Source: Thermodesulfobacteriota bacterium (GTDB lineage Bacteria; Desulfobacterota_D; UBA1144; Nemesobacterales; UBA2774). Taken from it: 64,000 nucleotides of DNA. The stretch lies in the NCBI GenBank assembly GCA_965216785.1, contig OZ244197.1, positions 2,508,349 to 2,572,348 on the forward strand, given 5' to 3'. A program made the translations under genes and the position numbers. Of the stretch, positions 30,548 through 30,738 are shown in pieces (position 1 is the first letter of the stretch; every line of letters begins with the position of its first letter). The notes beneath the pieces are model-generated. The model made no database searches. It was given only the letters and a program-made list of their open reading frames with translations, and was not told the origin of the DNA.

Positions 30548-30577
30548 TTGACACACATACACAAAACCTATTAGTAT
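30548..30577 (+). promoter_or_regulatory. Putative sigma70 promoter (TTGACA-18 nt-TAGTAT)
   Basis: Perfect -35 and near-consensus -10 upstream of a small ORF. Confidence 0.6.
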
Positions 30578-30627
30578 TGAGGTGTGGGCAACATGTTGTG
30601 CAAGCCCGCAACAGGAGGATATAGAAT

Positions 30628-30699
30628 ATGTGGACATTAATCGTAATAGGCTTAGCTTTCCTCGGCTGGTATATAATCAAGCCGCAAGAGGCTGAGTAA
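30628..30699 (+). CDS. Small 23-aa membrane peptide MWTLIVIGLAFLGWYIIKPQEAE (below the ORF-track cutoff)
   Basis: AGGAGG SD at 30613-30618, ATG, one hydrophobic helix, upstream promoter and downstream hairpin. Confidence 0.65.
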   Translation: MWTLIVIGLAFLGWYIIKPQEAE

Positions 30700-30712
30700 A
30701 GGCGCCGCGCCT

Positions 30713-30738
30713 AAAAGCGCTGGGACTTAAGCGCTTTT
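30713..30738 (+). terminator. Hairpin / probable terminator after the small ORF
   Basis: Stem AAAAGCGCT/AGCGCTTTT with an 8-nt loop. Confidence 0.5.

Follow-up and report, generated by a model that had tools for sequence, protein, structure and literature searches.

A helix-only gene upstream of ileS in Candidatus Dadabacteria, a truncated duplicate of a phylum-wide membrane protein gene

Results

Gene organization upstream of ileS

The window analyzed here, a 64,000-nucleotide stretch of a Candidatus Dadabacteria genome (3.12 Mb, single contig), carries a small transcription unit with a 23-codon open reading frame (ORF) between a gene for a 118-aa protein and ileS, all on the plus strand (Table 1). 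The predicted peptide consists of a single hydrophobic helix, with hydrophobic residues at positions 1-17 and tryptophans at positions 2 and 14, followed by a short acidic end. A sequence-only reading had already drawn attention to a promoter, a leader stem, a Shine-Dalgarno site, an ORF and a downstream hairpin at this locus, and each of these elements was recovered in its place. Upstream of the unit, the 118-aa protein is always the neighbor of ileS in the family, with 59-87% identity across genera, and its gene has a near-consensus promoter of its own.

Table 1. Coordinates of the small transcription unit and its surroundings, numbered within the window.
Feature	Position	Strand	Description
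Promoter of the 118-aa gene	30069-30098		Near-consensus, TTGACA-18-TAAAAT
118-aa protein gene	30129-30485	+	5' neighbor of the short unit; no Pfam or NCBIfam match
Sigma-70-type promoter	30548..30577	+	-35 TTGACA 30548-30553, 18-nt spacer, -10 TAGTAT 30572-30577
Predicted 5' UTR with hairpin	30584..30627	+	GTGGGC 30584-30589 / GCCCGC 30604-30609; start inferred
Palindrome CAACATGTTG	30589-30598	+	Between the leader stem arms GTGGGC and GCCCGC
Shine-Dalgarno AGGAGG	30613..30618	+	9 nt 5' of the ATG
ORF, 23-aa peptide MWTLIVIGLAFLGWYIIKPQEAE	30628..30699	+	Predicted helix at about residues 1-19, then QEAE
Terminator-like composite hairpin	30699..30757	+	Core stem 30706-30748, loop 30722-30729
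Downstream hairpin of the sequence-only reading	30713-30721 with 30730-30738	+	AAAAGCGCT paired with AGCGCTTTT
U-rich tract TTGTTTTAT	30749-30757	+	Directly 3' of the composite stem
ileS promoter	30804..30831	+	TTGCTT-16-TAATAT; 3' boundary, outside the small gene
Second conserved element before ileS	30866-30880		TATAAT/TAGTAT type
ileS	30930-33776	+	3' of the short unit

The promoter of the short unit agrees with the consensus at 10/12 positions. Taken by itself, such a match lies within chance expectation, with 3 promoter-like sites per 1.5 kb compared with 2.3 +/- 1.6 in shuffled sequences. In an alignment of the three orthologs described below, the hexamers and the spacer differ at only 3 positions and are nearly invariant. 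The AGGAGG motif is invariant in these three orthologs, as well as in the longer paralogs from which the unit descends, and is unpaired in the fold predicted for the window genome. The leader stem showed no excess stability relative to shuffles (z = -0.6 in the window, -1.0 and 0.0 in the orthologs), and a covariation analysis of the three orthologs, which is a weak test with three sequences, returned 4 consensus pairs and zero compensatory changes. The earlier suggestion that a structured leader hints at post-transcriptional control is thus not borne out, given a stem that equals shuffles, is unconserved and leaves the Shine-Dalgarno site free in the window.

At the 3' end, the downstream hairpin proposed from the letters is present but larger than had been described, and the unit ends about 20 nt beyond the end coordinate that it had been given. 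The composite stem has a predicted energy of -26.7 kcal/mol (z = -3.2) and was missed by a simple scan because the scan permits no bulges. Both orthologs have, in the same place, a hairpin of different sequence followed by a U-rich tail, and the 3' region of the three orthologs contains zero compensatory pairs, again in what is a weak test with three sequences. The 3' element and the ileS promoter beyond it support a separate transcription unit of ~175 nt, which would start near 30584 and end near 30757.

The position of the unit is consistent with this separation. A block of the form TTGC[A/T]T-16-TAATAT precedes ileS in all genera, including those without the small ORF, and is conserved between genomes G000 and G001. 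The spacer between the 118-aa gene and ileS measures 445-550 nt in the window's genus versus ~120-200 nt in other genera. The longer spacer, together with the location of the family-wide ileS promoter 3' of the unit, therefore indicates that the unit is an insertion upstream of that promoter. A second conserved element, of the TATAAT/TAGTAT type, lies closer to the ileS start codon (Table 1).

Conservation of the 23-codon ORF

We found the identical 23-aa peptide in G001, a metagenome-assembled genome of the same genus (L003:1055-1126), where the 118-aa gene, the small ORF and ileS follow each other in the same order, and in the metagenome contig L056 (255-187, minus strand), where the 118-aa gene and then the small ORF are followed by the contig end. 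The ortholog set consists of these two sequences and the window genome (n = 3, one genus); in the third genome of the genus (G002, 82% complete), the assembly contains neither the 118-aa gene nor the 5' part of ileS. A search for holders of the window sequence listed no RNA run and four DNA contigs, which come from one sample, probably the source, and are identical to the window. The exact 23-aa sequence is absent from a collection of 15 billion proteins, and the metagenome ortholog has been called only as a 33-aa ORF (P0048) that begins at an upstream ATG and reads through the Shine-Dalgarno site.

Alignment of the three orthologs revealed 8 variable codons with at least 9 substitutions, all of them synonymous, plus a TAA/TAG swap at the stop codon. 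In this ORF, the chance that a random substitution is synonymous is 0.20, or 0.29 for transitions, such that the probability of an all-synonymous outcome is ~6e-7 under uniform placement and 1.4e-5 if only transitions are allowed. The leader and the 3' flank have strongly diverged in the same alignment. The confinement of variation to third positions of the plus-strand frame places the constraint on the protein, rather than on an RNA or on an antisense frame. Judging from these comparisons, the 23-codon ORF is a genuine gene under purifying selection, and we consider it highly probable that the gene is real and translated. The view of the sequence-only reading that this is a real small protein gene therefore gains from both sides, as the unit is equipped with a promoter, a ribosome-binding site and a terminator-like 3' end of its own, and codon-level conservation in relatives, which it had proposed as a check, amounts to 23/23 identical residues with synonymous-only differences.

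Relationship to a longer paralog

A search of the genome against itself identified a second copy of the start of this gene, a 65-nt match (83% identity) that spans the Shine-Dalgarno site and codons 1-17. This second copy opens the gene of an 86-aa paralog whose first 16 residues are identical to those of the short peptide, and whose tail is an acidic, Pro/Ala-rich stretch that runs to the end DDDPFKAPG. Over codons 1-16, the short and long copies differ at 7 positions, 7/7 of them synonymous, and comparison with an outgroup places at least 2 of the 7 on the short lineage. Because all differences are synonymous and at least two arose after the copies separated, the identity of the two helices is attributable to selection, and recent gene conversion is ruled out.

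Homology between the short and long copies reaches from the -35 region to ~16 nt past the short stop codon. Within this stretch, the short copy lacks 5 nt, which brings the stop codon into frame, a Met-to-Ile change made the Ile-Ile pair of the short peptide, and the 5' arm of the terminator hairpin aligns with the long gene's former tail-coding sequence. The short promoter is homologous to that of the long paralog across genera: the long gene has TTGACA-18-TAATAT with a related spacer in this genome, and TTGACA-18-TAGTAT, as in the window, in other genera. The leader of the short unit is ~45 nt shorter than that of the long gene. At the protein level, the short peptide carries the family motif MWTLIxxGLAFxxW followed by Pro19, with M1, W2, L4, I5, L9, F11, W14 and P19 all present. 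It has neither the Pro/Ala-rich linker nor the C-terminal motif of the DPFKAPG type and stops after residue 23. By this comparison, the short gene is a truncated derivative of the long family, not a full member. The sequence-only reading had overlooked this main point: the unit is a duplicate, cut short, of a gene for a longer membrane protein found across the phylum.

The short gene arose in the ancestor of this Dadabacteria genus, when ~200 nt of the long gene were duplicated into the intergenic region that separates the 118-aa gene from ileS. Promoter, ribosome-binding site and roughly the first 23 codons were carried over, along with the beginning of the tail. A short deletion and a stop codon in the copy then cut off everything after the helix. 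Subsequently, the helix part was held by purifying selection, and the part that once encoded the tail decayed into what is now the putative terminator.

The long protein family

The long protein was found in 33/33 genomes of the family searched and in 80/120 genomes of the phylum (Candidatus Dadabacteria). It is rare elsewhere, with 44 clusters among 5.8 billion proteins, all unnamed or labeled 'hypothetical', and 9 representatives among 1.84 billion proteins. Searches with the long protein gave nothing above the cut-off in Pfam or NCBIfam, chance-level profile matches in the PDB and no usable match in the Protein Atlas. Nor did the short peptide show a sequence relation to known small membrane proteins, the only matches, to YoaK and DUF975, being sub-threshold and attributable to chance. 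Candidate identities as a TatA-like or OadG-like protein were dropped because the motifs mismatch in spacing or position, as was, on the same grounds, the reading of the DPF motif as an SSB-tail-like or FtsZ-tail-like element.

In members of the family, an N-terminal helix with the motif MWTLIxxGLAFxxW leads into a Pro/Ala-rich linker, and the DPF motif is present once or twice. The invariant columns of the alignment are M1, W2, L4, I5, L9, F11, W14 and P19 plus one proline in the linker, so that most of them fall within residues 1-19, and D80, P81, F82 and K83 near the C-terminus are nearly invariant where present. Lengths vary from 56 to 94 aa. The shortest form, of 56 aa (L020:1501-1671, in G008 of genus g7), ends after the first SEF/DPF-like motif. 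A 39-aa database entry (P0046), which may have been cut by a contig end, consists of the helix and a short Ala/Pro/Glu stretch. In genus g14, which belongs to another family of the phylum, many genomes contain two adjacent matches to the DPF tail of the long protein (for instance G080:C1:1034019-1034527 and G100:C1:1339115-1339623). These resemble tandem full-length paralogs, and the long family would thus duplicate in several ways.

The long gene is monocistronic and lies in a fixed setting. A gene for a 157-aa protein without Pfam match flanks it on one side together with a FabH-like gene, both reading in the opposite direction; from the other side, a FecCD-type ABC transporter operon converges on it. 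A conserved protein of 145-209 aa, also without Pfam match (L002:1841-2314, plus strand, and its orthologs), is always divergent from the long gene, with the FabH-like gene next to it. The promoter of the long gene is conserved beyond its hexamers across genera, approximately as CTTGACAyGGGCATATGAAATTTATTAGTATCAAGGTA (seen in L002 at ~1640-1680 on the minus strand, and in L025, L026, L027 and L028), and this extended conservation suggests a regulator site that overlaps the promoter. The remainder of the leader is unalignable across genera.

Helix-only copies in a second genus

Genus g3 also has helix-only ORFs. Three of its genomes, from different studies, contain ORFs of 21 aa whose last residues before the stop codon are QPQS, one of these genomes having two of them. 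The g3 ORFs lie inside the leader of the long gene, 3' of the same promoter and ~150 nt apart. Their differences from the long copies are mostly synonymous, the exceptions being conservative Met/Ile and Arg/Lys changes. The common QPQS ending indicates one origin within g3. In addition, the short copies of two g3 genomes have CTG at Leu4 where their long copies have TTG, which suggests orthology of the short copies and their retention since the two genomes diverged. The g3 copies differ from those of the window's genus (g1) in locus, end point and junction, and the two therefore represent independent events. Among 120 genomes of the phylum, no helix-only copies were found beyond those in g1 and g3. 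In every genome that holds a short copy, the long gene is retained beside it.

Discussion

Our comparisons identify the short peptide as a relative of a longer membrane protein that has kept the helix and lost the rest. It would insert into the cytoplasmic membrane as a single helix, and the location of Lys18 (Arg15 in other genera) on the C-terminal side of that helix suggests, by the positive-inside rule, that the C-terminus faces the cytoplasm. Since the helix equals that of the long paralog, we propose that it makes the same helix-helix contact, on the long protein itself or on its membrane partner; that the helix serves as an interaction module is inferred from its conservation. The short peptide would take this contact without bringing the linker and the DPF motifs, and in doing so would modulate, or compete with, whatever the DPF tail recruits. 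In our assessment, the best explanation of the short gene is thus a tail-less, helix-only paralog that engages the membrane partner of the long protein, to which we assign a probability of about 0.5. Inspection of the helix sequence revealed no classical GxxxG self-association motif. A complex prediction pairing the long protein's helix region with the 33-aa database form, used in place of the native 23 aa, which are below the 30-residue minimum, gave a score of 0.03, which counts neither for nor against such a contact. That the short peptide specifically antagonizes the long protein is a narrower proposition, which we regard as somewhat unlikely.

A different view of the same helix is that it constitutes the functional core of the family, for instance as a complex-stabilizing subunit like CydX or KdpF, and that the short copy supplies more of this function, or a dose of it under separate regulation, without opposing the long form. 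Strong conservation in the family is confined to the helix, and the tails are variable, with partial loss in certain lineages, as in the 56-aa form of g7 and the 39-aa entry; this natural shrinkage of the tail appears to fit a function of the helix alone as well as it fits antagonism. Moreover, the g3 short ORFs share one promoter with the long gene, an arrangement that suits co-production, and the short copy in the window has retained a strong promoter and a consensus Shine-Dalgarno site. On the other hand, the near-invariance of the DPF motif where it is present implies that the tail is functional in most lineages, and the long gene has been kept alongside the short one wherever a short copy exists. 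Weighing these points, we consider an added dose of the helix to be the main rival, though an unlikely account of the short gene, and we prefer engagement of the long protein's partner by a tail-less paralog.

The arrangement of a short ORF and a terminator ahead of a synthetase gene recalls the attenuator leader peptides of aminoacyl-tRNA synthetase and amino-acid operons (pheM and trpL type), and it could be imagined that the 23-codon ORF is a leader peptide for ileS that senses Ile-tRNA through the Ile codons at positions 5, 7, 16 and 17. The ORF does lie directly 5' of ileS, 4 of its 23 codons specify Ile, including an Ile-Ile pair, and a terminator-like hairpin follows. However, a promoter that belongs to ileS itself lies downstream of that terminator and is conserved also in genera lacking the ORF, and the ileS leaders of all other genera do not contain the unit. 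The predicted folds contain the terminator-like form only, with no alternative antiterminator pairing, and conservation extends beyond the Ile codons to all 23 residues of the peptide. In the paralog, the same stretch already holds 3 of the 4 Ile, and the helix-only copies of g3 adjoin the long gene rather than ileS. Attenuation is the least probable of the readings considered here. It is also conceivable that the ORF is a non-functional remnant of a partial duplication whose decay is still pending, since it is a gene fragment by origin and occurs in this form in one genus only. Against this, the part after the stop codon has decayed, yet the 23 codons have accumulated synonymous changes only across three species, and the promoter, the Shine-Dalgarno site and the stop codon have all been kept, which makes a remnant very improbable.

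A type I toxin, that is, a membrane-depolarizing hydrophobic peptide restrained by an antisense or trans-acting RNA, was raised as an option in the sequence-only reading. Like TisB, HokB and IbsC, the peptide is short and hydrophobic and has its own small unit, and both its size and its hydrophobicity suit the class (PMC12648545); the stand-alone unit with a strong promoter is likewise compatible with a toxin. In contrast to those systems, the short unit gives no sign of an antitoxin RNA: a sequence scan found no promoter-like sites on the minus strand in or just after the ORF, a search of the locus against Rfam returned no relevant match, and the 3' flank, the expected place of an antisense promoter, shows little conservation in the three orthologs. 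The ribosome-binding site is not sequestered either, and shuffled leaders fold about as stably as the real one. Furthermore, positive residues are often essential in membrane toxins (review PMC12648545), whereas this peptide ends in the acidic stretch KPQEAE, and it copies the helix of a conserved chromosomal parent, a housekeeping-like protein present throughout the phylum. For these reasons, a toxin seems improbable, and our preferred reading remains a tail-less paralog that would act on the partner of the long protein.

Among known systems, the closest is the long Dadabacteria family itself (56-94 aa), with which the short gene has in common the build of its promoter, the Shine-Dalgarno site, identity over the first 16 residues and homology through about residue 23. 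It differs from that family in having neither the linker nor the two DPF motifs, and in its location, since it occupies the spacer that separates ileS from the 118-aa gene. On sequence grounds, the short gene belongs to the bacterial small membrane proteins and to none of their known families. AcrZ, MgrB, KdpF and CydX are likewise under 50 aa, with one helix, scant soluble part and a stand-alone gene that gene callers miss (PMC12648545), but the short peptide has no sequence relation to any of them. The origin of small proteins by truncation of a paralog is not described in that review, which mentions 'paralog' and 'truncated' once each in passing.

The nearest likeness in logic comes from outside bacteria. 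Plant and animal microProteins (PMC9638782) are also small, single-module relatives of larger proteins that keep the interaction module and have lost the effector part, and the short gene likewise derives from a larger protein, of which it has retained the helix but not the DPF tail. The likeness is one of logic only, since microProteins are eukaryotic and mostly soluble regulators of transcription factors, and the short peptide is a membrane helix with a putative interaction. Protein fragments reported to inhibit their parents in Escherichia coli experiments (PMC9245647) similarly resemble the short copy in logic only. It is tempting to speculate that the microProtein trick exists in bacterial membranes, with the twice-evolved helix-only paralogs acting as tail-less competitors that tune the engagement of a DPF-motif adaptor, an idea that is unlikely as it stands and that we put forward tentatively.

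Whichever of these roles applies, the locus bears on how small membrane proteins arise. Gene callers routinely overlook small membrane peptides, and a traceable origin is rare. Here, the origin can be read base by base: part of a gene was duplicated together with its promoter, trimmed down to the helix and then maintained by selection. The phylum-wide long membrane protein with its conserved DPF motifs emerges as worth study in its own right, within the practical limit that the host organisms are uncultured. Set beside AcrZ, MgrB, KdpF and CydX on the one hand and microProteins on the other, the short gene and its recurrence in a sister genus offer a concrete, testable case of small membrane proteins born from larger ones.
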